Assembly: GCA_951406725.2 (NCBI GenBank)
Contig: OX597824.1
Location: 55,862,001-55,926,000 of the forward strand
Source of the DNA: Octopus vulgaris
Lineage: Eukaryota
Direction of reading: 5' to 3'
DNA length: 64,000 nt
Shown: positions 6,320-37,670 of the stretch, piece by piece
Position numbering within the stretch: position 1 is the stretch's first letter
Layout: each line of letters opens with the position of its first letter
Notes under the pieces: generated by a model
The model's database searches: none
What the model saw: the letters and a program-made list of their open reading frames with translations, nothing else
What the model was told of the DNA's origin: nothing
Translations under genes and position numbers: made by a program

Positions 6320-7333
6320 GTGAAATTTAAGGAAAAGAAAAATTATATATGTATTTATATATATATATATATATACATACTAGCATTAAAAACCCGTCGT
6401 TGCCGGGTCATAGTGCTAGTGCATGTATATATGTGTACATATTACATGTACATCTATATATATATATATATACATCTACACATAGAATACAAAATACAAA
6501 GTTATATCTTGATATCGCTAGTGATAACAATACTCAAAATATATAACAGACTGGAATTGTTAGCCCGTCTCTTGTAATTTCGATCAATTGTATCTTGTCC
6601 TCCCTCTTGTATAGAAGTGTGGCTACAATCCAGCCTACCTCTACTTCTGGGGGGAAGGGGCATTTAAAATTTTTTTCCGGAACGTCCTACGTCCCAGATA
6701 TAAAGATAAAAATAAAATATTTCCACTTTGCAAGTTCGAGTCGAGTACTCCCTTGCACGCTCCATTGACTCGAACCTTGCTTCTATTGTGGCGAATTTAC
6801 CGCCTCTGATTAGATATCTTTCATACTGGCACCAAGACTCTTTTCGAAGGTGTTTTCCTCCAGGTGTTCAAATCTTGTTTTTTCTCTACATTGTATACTT
6901 TATAGACAATAGTCTTTTCTTTAATTTAATTTTTTATTATCCATCTGGACTATTCCATTTCTGCACGCTAATTTTATTTTTAATTTATTCCCATTCATGT
7001 GAAACCACTTATTCAAGTTCAAGTCATTGATGCGATTTTATACCAATTGCTATTTTTACTTTTGTTATGTTACGATTATATTACTTTAGTTTGATTTTAA
7101 TTATTACTTACTACATATATTAGAAATATTAAATTTCTAAATATCTCATAGAGATATGTACGGTGGTGGGGCGATAGAATGGTTGTATACTATCAATTTA
7201 ATGTGACAGTAGGGGATTATACCGCCGCTGTTTAGCCCTAGGAAGCATCGACGCCTCCTGATGGCTTCGACACATTTTGTTTTCCTGTGTCCTTATATAT
7301 TTATGAAGAGGAGACAAATACCCCCAGCAGCCA

Positions 7334-7400
7334 GGCCTACATCTAGAGACACGCATGTTTCAGGATCTTTGTCCATCATTGGTCTAGAGTAGCAGAAGCC
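7334..7400 (-). ncRNA. Type I hammerhead ribozyme, probably inactivated (core CCAATGA, G5A)
   Basis: Minus strand GGCTTCTGCTAC-TCTAGA-CCAATGA-TGGA..TCCT-GAAAC-ATGCGT-GTC-TCTAGA-TGTAGGCC. Confidence 0.7.
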
Positions 7401-7539
7401 CGCCAACTGCAGATGAATCTTTATTATAGGCACAATGGCCCGAATGGAGAGGGGACATTACAATACAGGACATGGGGTACATATAACAAAAATACAAAAA
7501 GGATGGTATGACAATGAAATATTTACAATTACAATTGTG

Positions 7540-8891
7540 CTATCCGGGGCGTTCATCCGTAATATAATCGAGTAACTCCTCCTGTTCTATAACACCTGGC
7601 AAACTGTCATATCGAATGTATTGCATTACGCCTACAGCTATATTTGAATACACATTTATTAATTTCATTACTGTCTCTCTTTCTACAATTGCCGCCTTTA
7701 TTTGGTCATCGAATTTCTTCGGGTTCAGTTTTACTCTAGTTAGATTTTTCATATTCGCTAATTTCTTCTCAATTTCTTTGTCCTTTTTGTACAACATTAT
7801 AGCTTTGAGATTTCTTCCTTTTGGCCTTCGTCCTTCCTTACATATTTTCAGTTGTTCTTCCATTTTTCTTTCCCATTCTTTCTCTTCCTCCCACATTGAA
7901 ACTTCACTCACTTTCGTTTCTGTATCTCTCTCATCGTGCGTTTGATCCTCTATCTCGTCGGTAGACTTCTTTTTAGCTTTTTTCTTTTTTGTGCTTGCGT
8001 TCTCTTTCTATCCTCTTTTACTTCTGTTTTTTCCTTTTCTTTCTCCTTCACCAACTCATCACCACTTTCTACATTATCTGTAGTTACAATTTCCTCTTCC
8101 ACTTGCAATTCCACATTCGCCTTTTGTAACTCCTCTGTCAAAGCCTCCAGTGTTATCGTCTTCTCTTGTACTTCTCTTAGCGGACACATATCCTTCATGT
8201 GGCCTCTAATTTTACATTTGTAAGACACTGGGGGTCTCCCTTCCACCACGACTCTGAGACGTGTCTCGTCGGGGAACACCAACTCCTCAGGGATGTTATA
8301 CAGGTCTGGCATGGTTATGTGAAGCAAAGCCTGCACCGCATAACCCCACCACTTTATTTCTTTCGACTTTTCTACCTTCAGTATGTCGACGCTCTCTTTG
8401 CAGTTGAATATTATTGCCGCTACAATTCTTTCCGTGTCTAGTTCCGGTGAAATTTTACTAATCCGTATTCTCACTGCTCTTTTTCCACAATGGCTAGGTA
8501 GTAACACCCATTTTTCGGATTTCAATATTGTTGTGGCGTTTCTCTTCGCTTCGTCTTCGTTTTCAAAACGAGCGTCTACTGTCGCGTATTTTCTACCTCT
8601 ATTGTAGAAGGTAGTTTTTCCTTTAATTTCCTGTAGACACTTCTCGATTTCTTCCACCTCTGCTATTTCTATTCTCTTCGAAACCACACTCCACGTTCTG
8701 TACGTTATAATTCTCTTCTCAGCTTCTTTCACTTCGTCTTCAGGCGGTGTGTCCCTCAGACAATCACCTTCCTTCTTGAAGCTGTCGTAGTACTTCCTCA
8801 AACTCTACTTCTCGATAACTATTTCTTCCAACTGTAGTTCGCTCACAGCCAGGCCTTTGCCTGCTGCTCCCGCATAAGTTTGGGCTTGTAT
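7540..8891 (-). pseudogene. Gag/ORF1p-like nucleic-acid-binding protein (possible RRM-like region, CCHC knuckle, Lys/Glu-rich linker, conserved C-terminal domain); one stop and one frameshift
   Basis: ORFs 7950-8801 and 7540-7911 join via a -1 shift near 7975. The upstream extension reads TYAGAAG past an in-frame TAG. The knuckle RPPV[S]YKCKIRGHMKDMCP has its first Cys mutated. It is clearly homologous to 15287-16707 (YATVDARF/YATVDVRF, WVLLPSHCGK/WILLPSYCGK). Confidence 0.8.
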
Positions 8892-9435
8892 ACCCAACAA
8901 AAACTTCAACAATTCACCACGCCGTAACACCTTCCAACAACAAAATCCAACTCACAACCGCAATACACAATAACCGTAATACAAAATAACCGACACAAAC
9001 ACTGCCCGCCAGCTGCAGATATCTGTCCTGACTTCGTAAATATATATATCTAATTTTTGGTGAAGTTTATTCACTGATTACCAAAATCAGAAATATTAAG
9101 TTTCTAAATATCTCATAGAGTTATGTACGGTGGTGGGGTGATAGAATGGTTGTATACTGTCAATTTAACGTGACAGTAGGGGATTACACCGCCGCTGTTT
9201 AGCCCTAGGAAGCATCGATGCCTCCTATGCTTCCTAGGGCTAAACAGCAGCGGTGTAATCCCCTACTGTCATGTTAAATTGACAGTATACAACCATTCTA
9301 TCGCCCCACCACCATACATAACTCTATGAGATATTTAGAAACTTAATATTTCTGATTTTGGTAATCAGTAAATAAACTTCACCGAAAATTAGATATATAT
9401 ATTTACGAAGTCGGGACAGATATCTGCAGCTGCCA

Positions 9436-9502
9436 GGCTTCTGCTACTCTAGACCGATGATGGACAAAGATCCTGAAACATGCGTGTCTCTAGATGCAGG
9501 CC
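9436..9502 (+). ncRNA. Type I hammerhead ribozyme (U4C variant, core CCGATGA)
   Basis: Stem I GGC..CTGC..TCTAGA / TCTAGA.GCAGGCC, stem II GGA/TCC, GAAAC, short stem III ACA-TGCG-TGT. Predicted cleavage after GTC at 9488. Confidence 0.75.
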
Positions 9503-10393
9503 TGGCTGCTGGGGGTATTTGTCACCCCTTCGTAAATATATAAGGACACAGGAAAAAAATGTGTCAAAGCCATCAGGAGGCGTCGATGCTTCCTAAACAG
9601 TGGCGGTGTAATCCCCTACTGTCATGTTAAATTGACAGTATACAACCATTCTTTTACTACATTTAATTCAATTGTTATTATTTTATTGTTAAGGTGAAAG
9701 TATCTGACATAAAATAGAGAAATATTTTTGTTTCACTTTTAACACGTGGAGAATAGTGGAGAAGATATGATATTGCTAGGGAAACACACAGACAGACACA
9801 CATTCTCAGTTTTATATATATATAAAGATTACTAATAATAATAATATTGGTGATGATTGAAAGCATGAACTGTGCAGGCAAGTTTATGAGAGGAAAGTTT
9901 ATGAAGGGAAGCTAGGAGACAGGTATATATAGCCAAGACAAGTATATATAACCAAGACAGGTATAGACTGATAGTCAAGGGACAGGTATATATAGCCAAG
10001 GGAGAAGCAGAAAAGAAGTTTGCCAATGTTCAGTGATGTGAGGACCAAAGAACTGAAGTATTTCAGATTTAAAGACAGTGTGTGAGAGAAAATTGTGTCC
10101 GCATGGATAATGGTGCAATTGCGTTTAATGATTCTGCAAAGAAAGAGGCTTGGAGATGCCATTATGAAAGACTGCTGAACATGGAAAATGAATGGGAAGA
10201 AGAGAGCCTGCCAAATGTTGGCCAGCTACCCGAATTGACAGTACCCTGGTAGATAAAGCAATTAAGGATATGAAGGCAAGGAAAACCCCCAGCCCATCAG
10301 GAATCACCACTGAGATACTTAAAATATCTGATGGTGAAGGAGATGATCTAGTCAGTGGTATTGGAAATCAGATAGTTCACAAAAGAGTCATAC

Positions 10394-10626
10394 CTATTTC
10401 TTTACTACCCACAAGGGGCTAAACACAGAGGGGATAAACAAGAACAGACAGACGGATTAAGTCAATTACATCGACCCCAGTGCGTAACTGGTATTTAATT
10501 TATCGACCCTGAAAGGATGAAAGGCAAAGTCGACCTCGGCGGAATTTGAACCCAGAACATAACGGCAGAAGAAATACGGCTACGCATTTCGGCCGGCGTG
10601 CTAACGTTTCTGCCAGTTAGCTGCCT
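10394..10626 (-). mobile_element. tRNA-derived SINE inserted in the RTE LINE
   Basis: Minus-strand A box TGGCAGAAACGTTAG and B box GGGTTCAAATTCC. Same family as 60349-60560. The LINE sequence resumes on both sides. Confidence 0.8.
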
Positions 10627-14567: not shown

Positions 14568-14710
14568 CACCCTAGAAATGAGAACCCAGGGTTGGGTTCA
14601 AAATTCCAGAAGGTCACCTGATGAAAGCTGGAGAGTAAATCAGCGGAAACGTTGTGGTAACAACAAACAAAATGAGGACACATATCCATCCAATGTAAAT
14701 AATGTAAATA
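14568..14710 (+). mobile_element. Penelope-like pseudo-LTR fragment with minimal hammerhead (14615-14657)
   Basis: CAC-CTGATGA-AAGCTG..CAGCG-GAAAC-GTT-GTG has the palindromic AACGTT stem III typical of Penelope-like minimal hammerheads. An AT-rich tail runs into (TA)n. Confidence 0.65.
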
Positions 14711-14921
14711 TATATAAGCAATAATAAATCTCTGAACAAGGTATAGACAGTAACTGCACGACAATGTGAGGTATATTTGCCATCTCAATATGGCTAACCA
14801 CTAAGGGTGGATGTTACTGTAGCTTGTAGCCCCAGGAGAACATCTCCAGCTGGCTATAGGCACACTTTCTGTGCCCTATCGGTATTTGCAAAGGGAGGTC
14901 ATCCTTCCCTCATCAGCCTAA

Positions 14922-14980
14922 GTGATACACATGGACTGCAGTTTCTGGGTATTGACCCATCATCAGCGCACGACAATCAC
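14922..14980 (-). ncRNA. Type I hammerhead ribozyme with canonical core
   Basis: GTGAT..GTGCG-CTGATGA-TGGG-TCAATA-CCCA-GAAAC-TGCA-GTC-CATGTGT-ATCAC. Stem III is the palindrome ACTGCAGT. Proximal stem I is partly decayed. Confidence 0.8.
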
Positions 14981-15286
14981 CGGTTTTTGTATTTCTTTAT
15001 TTGGCACTAAGGCCACAACACAGAGGGGACACTACAAGGACAGACACAACACTACAGTGGGGACAATAAATATAAAACAGATGAAAATGAATATTATATA
15101 ATAATGGAAAATGAAATGGCTGCATGGGCCCCACTCCACATACAGTACCATTGGAGTGTTTTTACACTCTGTTATTACAGTCTTATTTTATCTGATTTTT
15201 CCTCTTTTTTTCCGTTCATTAAATGTCATTTTTTCTTCAAAAATACTCTTCCTTTCTCTTTTTTTTAAAACTTTTTTTTTTTCCTT

Positions 15287-16707
15287 TTAACGCTTCATAT
15301 ACTGCTCCAGCTCTCTCAGTTCGATTACTGGTGGCAGCTCATTGAACTCCACTATCGTTCCACCAGGGTCGATTCCATCACCGCACCTGTCTCTAAGTCT
15401 TTCATAAACCACCTTATCGGCGACCAAACCTTTCACTCTCTCAGAGTACATGTCTCTGGGCATTTTCACCCTTACGATGTTTTTAAACTTCACAATTTCC
15501 TTTTCCACTTCCTTGTTTTTTGAATAGGTAAAAAAACTCCATTGTTTCTTCCATCCTCTAGGCTTTCTCCTTTCTTCCTCTCCCAATATATGCTCCTCTG
15601 TACTCTTCCTGAGGCTGGAACAATCTTCTTCTCTATCTCCACTATTAACAGTTTCTCCATCTCACCCTCTTGTAGCTGAGTCTCTGAAACTTCTGCCAAA
15701 TCACATGTCATCCTCAACCTTGTTTCCTCCTTCTCTGGCTCATTGTCACACAACTTCTTAATTATTTTTTCACTTCCCTTCTTCGCCTTACTTTTGTTAT
15801 CTTTCTTTCTCGTTACGTCTTCCTTTTCCACCTCTTCTTTCTTCTTTTTCTGGTCAGTCGGTGGCGGGCTTGCCCTAACGCTCCTCCTTCTTTTTCTTTC
15901 CACTGTTATGAAACCCTCTTCCGCTGCTTTTTCACTACTCTTGACCGTCTCTGCCTGTTCGATATTTTCTTGATTTTCTCTCTGTTTCTGTGGGCATCTC
16001 GCCTTCATGTGTCCCTTTTCGCCACATTCAAAACACACCGGCGGACTGCCCTCCACCTTCATTCTCAGTGAGAAACCGCCAGGCAACACTATCTCCTCAG
16101 TTATTCTATTGAGGTCTTCTACTGTTGCCTGGATTGTTAATTCCAATCCATAGCCCCAGTAGTCCTGCATATATGTTCTGGTGGCCTTTAGTATTCTGGC
16201 CCCGTCTTTCATGTTATACATAATGGCTGTCATTAGCCATTCCTCCTCCAGCTCGGGGGGCACTTGGCCGACCTGAACTTTCGCCACAAGTTTTCCGCAA
16301 TATGATGGCAAAAGAATCCATTCTTCCGAACGAATTGCCTCCGTCGCATATTTTAATGCTTCCTCCTCCGATCTGAATCGCACATCCACAGTGGCATACC
16401 TTCTGCTTCTCGTTCTGAAGGTTATAAACTTTTTAATGCCTTCCAACACTTTTTCAATTTCTTGTACTGCTGCTATTTCTATTTTCTTTGTGGCGACCTT
16501 CATGGTCTTGTAGGTCACCGTTTTCTTTAGTATGCTGTTCGTCAGCTCTTCGGTTGGCATTAATTTTATCGTTTCACCCTCCTTCTTTATCAGCTTCTCG
16601 CAATCTTTTATTTTCTTGTCGTCGACTAATATTCCATAAGTTCTTTCCTCTGCTCCTCTCCCAGTTGCGGCTGCATTGCTGTGGCCGCCTGCTGGTGACT
16701 TCTCCAT
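15287..16707 (-). pseudogene. Gag/ORF1p-like protein with intact CX2CX4HX4C zinc knuckle; single frameshift before the C-terminal domain
   Basis: ATG at 16707 (MEKSPAGG) and knuckle SPPVCFECGEKGHMKARCP. The C-terminal ORF 15287-15586 (LPPVIELRELEQYM) is homologous to 7540-7911 (LPGVIEQEELLDYI). Confidence 0.85.
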
Positions 16708-17101
16708 TTTCCTCGATGGGAAAATATAACAACACAAAAATTAAACAATATTAACACCGATAACGACGACCAGCAAAAATCAACAATTAATTACTCACAT
16801 TAATGCTCCGTCTTCAACAACTCGAAAAAAATCACTGGTTTTCGATGAAAGGAGTCCCAATGCAAATATTTATATCCTTTTTCCAGTAACTTTATGTCAC
16901 TGATCTTGAAAAAATGTATACAAGCAATAATAAATCTCTGAACGAGGTATAGGCAGTAACTGCACAACAATGTGAGGTATATTTGCCATCTATCTATCTA
17001 TCTATATATATATATATATATATAAAAGGCAGAGCTCCAGCATGGCCATAGTCAATTGATTGAAACAAGTAAAAGAATAAAAGAATATTTATATATATAT
17101 T

Positions 17102-24907: not shown

Positions 24908-25667
24908 CATCATCGTTTAACGTCTGCTTTCCATGCTAGCATGGGTTGGACGGTTCAACTGGGGTCTGGGAAGCCAGAAGGCTGCACCAGGCCCAGTCTG
25001 ATAAAAGCAGTGTTTCTACAGCTGGATGCCCTTCCTAACGCCAACCACTCCGTGAGTGTAGTGAGTGCTTTTTACGTGCCACCGGCACAGAGACCAGATG
25101 AAGCTGGCAACGGTCACGATTGGATGGTGCTATTTACGTGCCACCGGCACGGAGACCAGACGAAGCTGGCAATGGCCACAATCGGATGGTGCTATTTACG
25201 TGCCACTGGCACGGAGACCAGACGAAGCTGGCAACGGCCACAATCGGATGGTGCTTTTTACGTGCCACTGGCACGGAGGCCAGCACTGGCTACGGCCACG
25301 TTCGGATGGTTCTCTTACGTGCCACTGGCACTGGTATCACAGCTACAAATTCTATTGATGTTGATCAATTACGATTTTGATTTTCACTTGCCTCAACAGG
25401 TCTTCACAAGCAGAGTTTTGTGTCCCAAGAAGGAATGGAATGCATAAGTGGGCTGGCTACATCCCACGTAGAGGCCATGGGATTATGGCCCCACTTGTCC
25501 TGCCAGGTCTTCTCACGCACAGCATACTTCCAAAGGTCTCGGTCTCTAGTCATTTCCTCGGTGAAACCTAAAGTTCGAAGGTCGTGCTTCACCACCTCGT
25601 CCCAGGTTTTCCTGGGTCTACCTCTTCCACAGGTTCCCTCAACCGCTAGGGTGTGGCACTTTTTCAG
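24908..25667 (-). mobile_element. RTE LINE 3' end with internal ~60-bp tandem repeats
   Basis: KKCHTLAVEGTCGRGRPRKTWDEVVKHDLRTLG C-terminus, 3' UTR homologous to 12680-13080, repeated TTTACGTGCCAC units and a (GAT)n tail. Confidence 0.85.
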
Positions 25668-28787: not shown

Positions 28788-30276
28788 ATGGCTGACGAAG
28801 GCATTAATAACATGACCCAGCCGGATTCAGTTGGCAACCTCCTCGGAGATAGCCATTTAGGCAATTTGGATAATTACAGTTCTAGTGCTTTCCAGTCGGA
28901 ACCTCTGCAGCCTCAACCGTCAGCACCTCATCAGATGATGTCTTCTGGATCGATTTCTTCGTCTAATCCTCTGGATGATGACTTCGGTTTTGATTCGCAC
29001 ATCACCTCAAGCAACACGGTTAACCCAAGTTCGAATACCACCAGCAGCGGCAGCAACAATTCGGCTCAGTCATCTTCATCCTATACCCCGGGTGAGCTAA
29101 TTTCTAATACTTATAACCCTGTTGATCATGACAGTAACTATAATGCTAGTCGTGTTCAAATCGCTACCCATGACACTGGAGAAAATTTTAATCTTGACAA
29201 TAGTAATTATGGAATGTCTGATTCTTCACCACCACCACCTTTATCGCAACACCAGCAGCACCATCTAAATGAACCATCGTCTAAAGACGATGAGGTTGAC
29301 AGTGGAGATTCTGACAGCGACGATTATGAGAAATATGACCATGATAGTCTTGTTAGAGGTCAGACTGTGCTTACATCGAAACACAGTGAGGACCAACAAC
29401 ACAGTCAAGACGAGTACGATGATGAAGATGACGATGGAGAAAGTTCCCTCATCGAATATAATGATATTGAAGATGATGAAGTAGATGTGGTTAAAGATAA
29501 CGATTTTGTTTACTCGACTTCTGCTGTGGCTGATTCAGCCAACGCGGTTGATAAATTTCCAGATAATGTCCAAGCACCACAACTTTCCCCTTTAGATTCT
29601 TCATTGTCACCTCAAACATCACCAACCCTCCAGGCACCCTTCCATTCCGAAATTCCCCCCTTTGGTTCTTCTGAAGCAAATGATGTTGCGACAATTTCTC
29701 AGTCCGACGAAGGCAAAGTGGTGGATTCGCCCTCATTTATGCCCTCAGATCCTTTCATTACTAGCACCAGCGATGCAGGTACACCATCACCTGTTCCTGT
29801 CACTAGTTTTGGCTATGATGACCCACTGAAATTGTCTGGTGTTGCTTCTTCTGTTGAGACTGCAGCTCCTAGTGGTCAGTTTGTGAACGATCTAGCACCC
29901 GAAGTAATAGGTGGCAATGATGGTGTAGAAGTTGCTGGTAGTGAAAATGATGATGACAGCTTTGACGAACAGCGATGTGAAATTCCTGCGTATTCATCGC
30001 TGTCAATGTCGACACCTGTCGTAGCATCTGCTGACCCCTCTTTTAGTCAACCCAAATCACCATCCCCTCCGATTTCCGACCCTCAGTTATCCGTGCTCGA
30101 CTCCGATCCGTATTGCACCACTATTAAACACCAACAACCATCTACTTTCTATAACACTCAAAGCATCAACGAGAACCGCTTTTCCTCAGAACCCGATTCC
30201 TCGTCAGAACCCACAGTACAAACAGGTCCTAACTTTACAGAACCTAAAGAAGCACAACCACAGTCGACGTTAGAAG
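28788..30276 (+). CDS. First coding exon of a host gene: ~496-aa acidic, Ser/Pro-rich intrinsically disordered N-terminal region (possibly a long reticulon isoform; identity not demonstrable here)
   Basis: Long uninterrupted non-repeat ORF with higher GC, a strong Kozak context GCCATGG at 28788, and a splice donor GAAG|GTAGGA at 30276/30277 (phase 1) just before the frame closes. Confidence 0.8.
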
Positions 30277-30367
30277 GTAGGACATGGCTGACTCATTAGA
30301 CTGTACACCTCTACCATTAATCCAGCTAACAATCTATCCACTACTTCGATTAACTAATAATTTAATG

Positions 30368-37670
<7,303 letters not shown>

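Follow-up and report, generated by a model that had tools for sequence, protein, structure and literature searches.

A stretch of 64,000 nt from the genome of Octopus vulgaris (the window; C11:55862001-55926000 of a 2.8-Gb genome) carries two coding cassettes, A and B, on its minus strand, each bounded by short direct repeats beside a hammerhead ribozyme motif. How did coding sequence come to lie between these repeats? A sequence-only reading of the window had proposed that a single element passes between a long and a short form through template switching at the repeat, or that an ORF1-only element repeatedly targets the site just upstream of hammerheads, which would make the repeat a TSD. Fixed ends, locus-specific TSDs and the presence of the cassette in several hosts support the second proposal, as do the absence of ORF2, purifying selection on ORF1, and a site and AATAAAGA tail held in common with complete LINEs. 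Both cassettes are defective members of an old ORF1-only (HAL1-like) lineage within the L1/Tx1-type LINEs. Overall, we consider it likely that they represent an ORF1-only retrotransposon with TSDs that was copied by the endonuclease and reverse transcriptase (RT) of complete LINEs at a site that would be the start of a host promoter.

Cassette A (7415-9003, 1589 bp) has a fixed 5' end, ends in AATAAAGATTC with no poly(A) tract, and contains a broken ORF1 (7540-8891) in which the start codon reads ATA, a stop lies near 8805 and the frame shifts near 7990. It sits between the 5' (9004-9020) and 3' (7398-7414) copies of TSD A, with the upstream part of a host-1 unit at 9021-9227 and the downstream part of this retrozyme-like unit, plus a partial next repeat, at 7101-7397. 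The downstream part includes a type I hammerhead motif with a mutated core (7342-7388, predicted cleavage between 7348 and 7347), and the upstream part includes an element resembling the PSE of U1/U2 genes (9065-9078) that starts 58 nt upstream of TSD A. Cassette B (14990-16829, 1840 bp) is an ORF1-only copy of a divergent family, with an ORF at 15490-16707 and its C-terminal domain out of frame. The TSD B copies lie at 16830-16844 (5') and 14975-14989 (3'), the upstream part of the host-B unit (16845-17000) has a PSE-like element at 16891-16904, and the downstream part with a partial next repeat (14706-14974) has a type I hammerhead motif with a CUGAUGA core (14929-14971, predicted cleavage between 14934 and 14933). 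All of these features are on the minus strand. A search for ORF2 in cassettes A and B gave no match (E>0.3).

All five repeat strings quoted in the sequence-only reading are present where it had placed them, and the two copies agree within each element (16/17 positions in A, 13/15 in B). In the window, the A 17-mer occurs at up to three mismatches in three places, the two flanks and an inverted unit, and the B 15-mer at up to two mismatches in two places, both flanks of cassette B. The inverted unit (9228-9652, plus strand, period ~348 bp) has a PSE-like element at 9364-9377, a single target copy at 9422-9438 that matches the A repeat at 14 of 17 positions, and a hammerhead at 9448-9494. Its upstream segment is joined to the hammerhead through that one copy, as expected of the empty form that had been described. 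The repeats had also been said to abut the hammerhead, but the gap to the catalytic core is 15 nt in A and 8 nt in B; folding places the flanking repeats inside the long hairpin that carries the core (z -6.5).

Exact copies of the host-1 site number 113 genome-wide, with 63 exact empty joins. The proposed count of empty against filled units, made on the first 30 host-1 sites, gave 19 empty, 4 other and 7 behind a LINE-type tail, an occupancy of about one quarter of the sampled sites; the 7 filled sites consist of three cassettes and four autonomous-type elements. Empty host-1 units are often found as closely spaced inverted pairs (e.g. G000:C2:85777746 and 85777808; C9:93145849 and 93145959), and because such pairs are common, the inverted unit of the window is probably older host architecture.

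The host units are non-coding repeats with a period of ~348 bp, a type I hammerhead motif and stems, and their size and motif are those of non-LTR retrozymes (non-coding repeats of 150-450 bp in which a type I hammerhead motif is present). Hammerheads were identified by core motif and stems alone; an Rfam search of the window returned no hammerhead match, and short-stem variants may escape Rfam. The core reads CCAAUGA in copy A and CCGAUGA in the empty unit, versus CUGAUGA, and by the rules for hammerhead cores the mutated core would probably leave the copy A hammerhead inactive. No host sequence was found beside a Penelope-type RT in the four loci examined. Animal non-LTR retrozymes, as presented in passages of PMC7229834 and bioRxiv 10.64898/2026.07.22.740005, are non-coding, measure ~350 bp, contain a type I hammerhead and form partial tandem and inverted arrays, and the octopus host units resemble them in size, predicted ribozyme type and both kinds of array. 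This correspondence is to the retrozyme-like hosts, not to the cassette. Newt satellite 2, for which an snRNA-type promoter is cited in the relevant part of PMC2220036, offers a precedent for the internal snRNA-type promoter that we propose below for the host units.

Both the 5' start and the 3' end are fixed among A-type copies. We classified every one of the 38 exact A-type 3' tails in the genome: 25 immediately precede a hammerhead host (9 in host 1, 9 in host 2, 3 in host 2b, 2 in host 2c and 2 in host 3), two are stacked before a host-type repeat and another cassette, and 11 lie elsewhere. In a TSD survey of 25 loci, 22 rows (21 distinct loci) had both ends. Terminal repeats in the 21 full-length copies measured 10-23 nt (13-18 nt in 15 of 21) and each equals its local flank; two of these TSDs say little because one copy lies in a microsatellite (L026) and the other is stacked (L023). 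A private local allele is present in both TSD copies at L028 and L125. Three copies (L003, L017 and L244) carry inverted segments, a product typical of L1-type reverse transcription. The repeats are very probably the TSDs of an inserted element.

Cassettes at random positions, or copies lacking the repeats, had been named as grounds for doubting this interpretation. The 11 A tails noted above are off-target, but those sampled keep flanking repeats of their own (16-21 nt at L005, L029 and L254). Targeting of the hammerhead-flanking site is partial: it is seen for 25-27 of 38 tails in family A, and in family B for 2 of 30 3' ends, those of cassette B in the window and of the copy nearest to it (94%), both in host B. 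A B cassette upstream of host B was absent in the 29 other host-B copies examined. An A-type cassette also lies inside host B (L128), and at L255 (G000:C12:46644500-46651000) three different ORF1-only cassettes are arranged head to tail at one host-B site. At L129 (G000:C10:62599000-62607500) a 3'-truncated B-type cassette is immediately followed by a co-oriented Penelope-type RT frame.

A template switch at the repeat that turned the long form into the short one and back would account for the presence of both empty and filled forms. It is very improbable, however, given that unrelated inserts of 1.6, 1.8, 5.3 and 5.5 kb share one site, the 5.3-5.5 kb inserts being unrelated LINEs, that inserts can be stacked, that the cassette occurs with its own TSDs in unrelated DNA as well as in several hosts, and that locus-private alleles are duplicated on both sides.

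The sequence-only reading had suggested comparing the phylogenies of unit and ORF. Host labels mapped on a cassette tree of 41 copies (6 omitted on coverage grounds) speak for targeted insertion, with 18 changes of host against a minimum of 9. Shuffled labels gave a mean of 26.4 changes and a lowest value of 22; host labels therefore cluster beyond chance, and co-amplification or RNA-end homing may have contributed. One subclade (support 89) spans host 1, host 3 and unrelated DNA, and other subfamilies favour particular hosts. The clustering of cassette subfamilies with hosts would also be seen if a few insertions had created cassette-plus-host units that were then amplified as hammerhead-to-hammerhead RNAs by Penelope machinery, and the identical 17-nt junctions of L001, L004 and L006 and the junctions common to window B and the B copy of L255 are in keeping with such a history. 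This composite spread is nevertheless quite unlikely: TSD alleles follow each locus (L015, L028, L125), the supported subclade crosses hosts and unrelated DNA, window B and L255 differ in the upstream host allele, and L015, L019 and L250 retain donor-type sequence inside the TSD of a different target.

Intact ORF1-only relatives encode 417-463 aa. Although it has lost its ATG and carries a stop and a frameshift, ORF1 of cassette A is 95.7% identical to the intact 463-aa ORF of L004, which comprises two predicted RRMs, a CCHC knuckle, a charged linker and a lineage-specific C-terminal domain (95 aa, alpha/beta). A structure model of the L004 product (mean pLDDT 69, 20 sequences) matched tandem-RRM proteins in structure comparison (best E 5.5e-4), and the cassette ORF1 product is predicted to be an RNA-binding protein. 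For the C-terminal domain, the ESM Atlas gave no usable match, and structure comparison of its model returned nothing more specific than generic alpha/beta sandwiches (best E in Foldseek 0.016; Z no higher than 5.3); among 19 loci, a profile of this domain matched cassettes only. We examined 90 of the 151 loci matching the cassette B ORF, and ORF2 was absent downstream (within 1.5-2.7 kb) in 89 of them, the exception having a 5'-truncated ORF2 fragment.

Calculated on open frames only, dN/dS of the ORF1 core was 0.10-0.22 in 11 measurable ORF1-only pairs (2 saturated) and 0.09 in the single autonomous pair, and that of the C-terminal domain was 0.09-0.36; these ratios indicate that ORF1 in the ORF1-only lineage is under purifying selection. 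In an unrooted tree of 18 sequences (2 left out), the ORF1-only proteins stand apart from six sampled autonomous ORF1s with support 100. Protein homologs of the cassette B ORF comprised two matches, both from Octopus bimaculoides. Because the Octopus bimaculoides protein P0001 has the lineage-specific C-terminal domain, the ORF1-only lineage is old. Two further identities for the cassette were rejected: that of a Penelope body between pLTRs is ruled out by the lack of an RT and by the cassette's own TSD, and that of a decayed full LINE by the fixed ends and by selection on ORF1.

A search with zf-RVT identified many LINEs with a 1130-1140-aa ORF2 and tails similar to those of the cassettes. 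The partner-type ORF2 has APE, RT and zf-RVT domains (Pfam) and, in a run on the related L124, is nearest to L1 among solved structures (231 bits for L1 ORF2p vs 89 bits for R2). One of 30 members of the zf-RVT set, L114, ends at the cassette A host-1 site. In the L114 family, 20 of 30 3' ends (a count that includes the query and some near-duplicates) precede a hammerhead host, 19 by script and 1 by eye, and two precede another element. L125 and L126 are complete APE-RT-zf-RVT LINEs that belong to two families; both lie at full length inside host B, with TSDs of 17 and 14 bp. Cassettes and complete LINEs have in common a terminal TGTCC...AATAAAGA(T/A), a similarity that is short. None of the complete LINEs sampled was an autonomous element with an ORF1 close to that of the cassettes (28-35% identity), and the assignment of a partner therefore relies on the site and the tail.

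The partner shows two traits of the Tx1 clade as characterized in parts of PMC5203782 and PMC4494074, an RRM/zf-CCHC ORF1 and a target preference, and no named Tx1 reference was among the 120 RT matches listed. The partner is likely an L1/Tx1-type LINE, its Tx1 placement resting on architecture and behaviour. It is very likely that the cassette was mobilised in trans by the ORF2 machinery of complete LINEs.

What marks the insertion site? Its placement just upstream of the hammerhead, as first described, is true, but the insertion point tracks the distance to the PSE-like element more closely. U1/U2 genes share a PSE element at -56..-60, and we built a PSE matrix from 18 of these genes, with examples confirmed by Rfam. 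Measured from the TSD start, the best match lay at -55..-59 for 16 of the 18 host sites, which are not independent because the hosts are related, vs 0 of 7 off-target sites; between scans, the host-2 anchor for this distance was moved from ATC to the TSD start. Nine of the 16 matches were individually significant (p<=0.05 vs shuffles), and scores at hosts are modest (0.6-10.8 bits vs 22 for a real U2 site). In the empty unit of the window the U1 matrix places the best score at -58, and the combined matrix places it at -104. The PSE block is kept in 11/11 filled sites, two of which are references, vs 26/50 other host copies (p 0.002; host B alone, p 0.29). LINE tails also end at +1 in snRNA genes, in one U1 gene (L203) and in several U2 genes (L362, L370 and L373).

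The distance from the insertion point to the hammerhead core, read from junctions, is 25-32 nt. Set against the 55-59 nt to the PSE, and with LINEs at U1/U2 +1, this makes the start site, not the ribozyme, the likely anchor. If the target were instead the ribozyme hairpin itself, as an extruded hairpin or R-loop, the location of the TSD within the 5' arm of a highly stable hairpin and the predominance of hammerhead repeats among on-target sites would follow. The two distances argue against a hairpin target, as do the U1 and U2 genes, which have no hammerhead and are entered at +1; no 3'-arm insertion was seen among sampled junctions, and promoter-truncated hosts are absent among filled sites. 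We regard the hairpin as an improbable target. With some reserve, we favour the transcription start of the host repeat's snRNA-type promoter as the insertion site, the PSE-like motif being the putative working promoter.

A repeat that we take to be Mariner-like from its transposase motif (L383-L412) is another LINE hot spot: 8 of 30 copies have LINE tails no more than 60 nt away, and an A copy (L251) is located in it. This hot spot provided an out-of-sample test that goes against a universal rule, as a PSE match at -55..-59 was found at 0 of 19 anchors. The repeat has 54 exact motif copies, an octamer-like ATTTGCAT upstream and stacks of short leftover pieces.

Four copies have 5' extensions inside their own TSD that start within ~4 nt of the insertion point of another target: host 1 for L015, host 2 for L019 and L250, and U1 from +1 for L026. 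The autonomous L369, L371 and L372 likewise have short 5' extensions matching another target. The extensions fit transcription from the donor's host promoter; similar ones in SINEU are explained, in the section of PMC4494074 concerned, by template switching to small RNAs.

We propose that the PSE-like motif drives host transcription from the TSD start and that an inserted copy would be transcribed from this promoter. ORF1p may package its own RNA in cis, and mobilisation in trans would then proceed by target-primed reverse transcription with the endonuclease and reverse transcriptase of a partner LINE. Transcription of the inserted copy from the host promoter would reward the choice of site and explain why 5' extensions begin near the donor insertion point. 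The site may be recognised through an extended DNA sequence, through RNA-end pairing or through tethering to the promoter complex; our single best guess is extended recognition with the upstream block as part of what is read. A broader generalization is possible but doubtful: what guides LINEs and their ORF1-only passengers to a target may be where it lies with respect to the snRNA promoter complex (57-59 nt behind the PSE), not the cut-site sequence, such that one machinery would serve five retrozyme subfamilies and U1/U2. The ORF1-only lineage, with its own conserved C-terminal domain, would then be a third-level parasite that captures a promoter ahead of it and, 60-70 nt beyond its 3' end, a self-cleaving ribozyme.

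The L1, Jockey and CR1 clades have all given rise to ORF1-only non-autonomous LINEs, and the portions of PMC5753468 and PMC5786205 that we draw on include HAL1 (half-L1), HeT-A and Ag-Sponge. As far as these accounts go, the octopus cassette resembles them in having ORF1p only and a LINE-type 3' end and in needing a partner ORF2p. It differs in its RRM-RRM-CCHC ORF1 with an extra C-terminal domain, in lacking a poly(A) tract, and in having a preferred site that lies in another mobile repeat. Target-specific LINEs of the Tx1 clade covered in sections of PMC4494074 include Xenopus Tx1 in Tx1D, Keno in U2 genes, and crocodilian Tx1-Mar in Mariner-N4 with SINEU passengers. By that partial description, the octopus system shares with them an APE-type endonuclease, a site in another repeat, TSDs of roughly 16 bp, tandem stacking, non-autonomous site-sharing passengers, 5' extensions and suggested flank transcription. 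Unlike those cases, the octopus target is a hammerhead repeat, the passenger is protein-coding, and the site is a promoter-defined position common to U1/U2 +1. R2 in 28S rDNA relies on target transcription, and flank sequence in its RNA may aid targeting (PMC4494074, in the part cited), both of which recall the proposed octopus system; R2 differs, on the same account, in its restriction-like endonuclease, its own ribozyme and its lack of ORF1.

Thirteen active L1-Tx1 families are listed in a published repeat annotation of Octopus vulgaris, whose main text does not mention ORF1, a ribozyme or a target (PMC13282606). Literature searches on Tx1 and retrozymes, on snRNA promoters and hammerhead insertion, and on octopus Tx1, Penelope and hammerheads found no description of this arrangement, subscription journals and Repbase being outside their scope; Repbase-type family lists (supplements of PMC13282606 or PMC4494074) may already name the octopus cassette and LINE families. 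The octopus cassette is a variant on known Tx1 and HAL1 behaviour, in which the ribozyme-repeat target and the coding passenger are the new part: ribozyme-bearing repeats are an added target class for site-specific Tx1-type LINEs, and a protein-coding passenger is added. Because one element enters hosts that differ in sequence while its spacing from a promoter element stays constant, these sites form a natural series for LINE targeting modes that could separate sequence recognition, RNA-end pairing and promoter tethering. The host sites also hint at how mollusc retrozymes get transcribed.

Several minor observations accompany these results. A U2 cluster (L358-L374; G000:C3:20.77-20.84 Mb) has complete LINEs at U2 +1, some in tandem, with a 14-nt TSD. 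At L317, L320, L321 and L255, cassettes with the tail AATAAAGAGAAA meet the host ~8-12 nt further downstream than those with the tail AATAAAGATT, and tail letters may co-vary with junction position. The end of an abundant SINE-like repeat (10395-10450 of the window) is 77% identical over 57 nt to the 3' tail of cassette B and also resembles autonomous LINE tails, making this repeat a candidate further passenger. Elsewhere in the window are an acidic, low-complexity 503-aa ORF with no Pfam match that is probably a host exon (28788-30299, plus strand), a degenerate (AT)n array of 6.9 kb (30806-37662) and a 62-bp tandem repeat (25065-25331).
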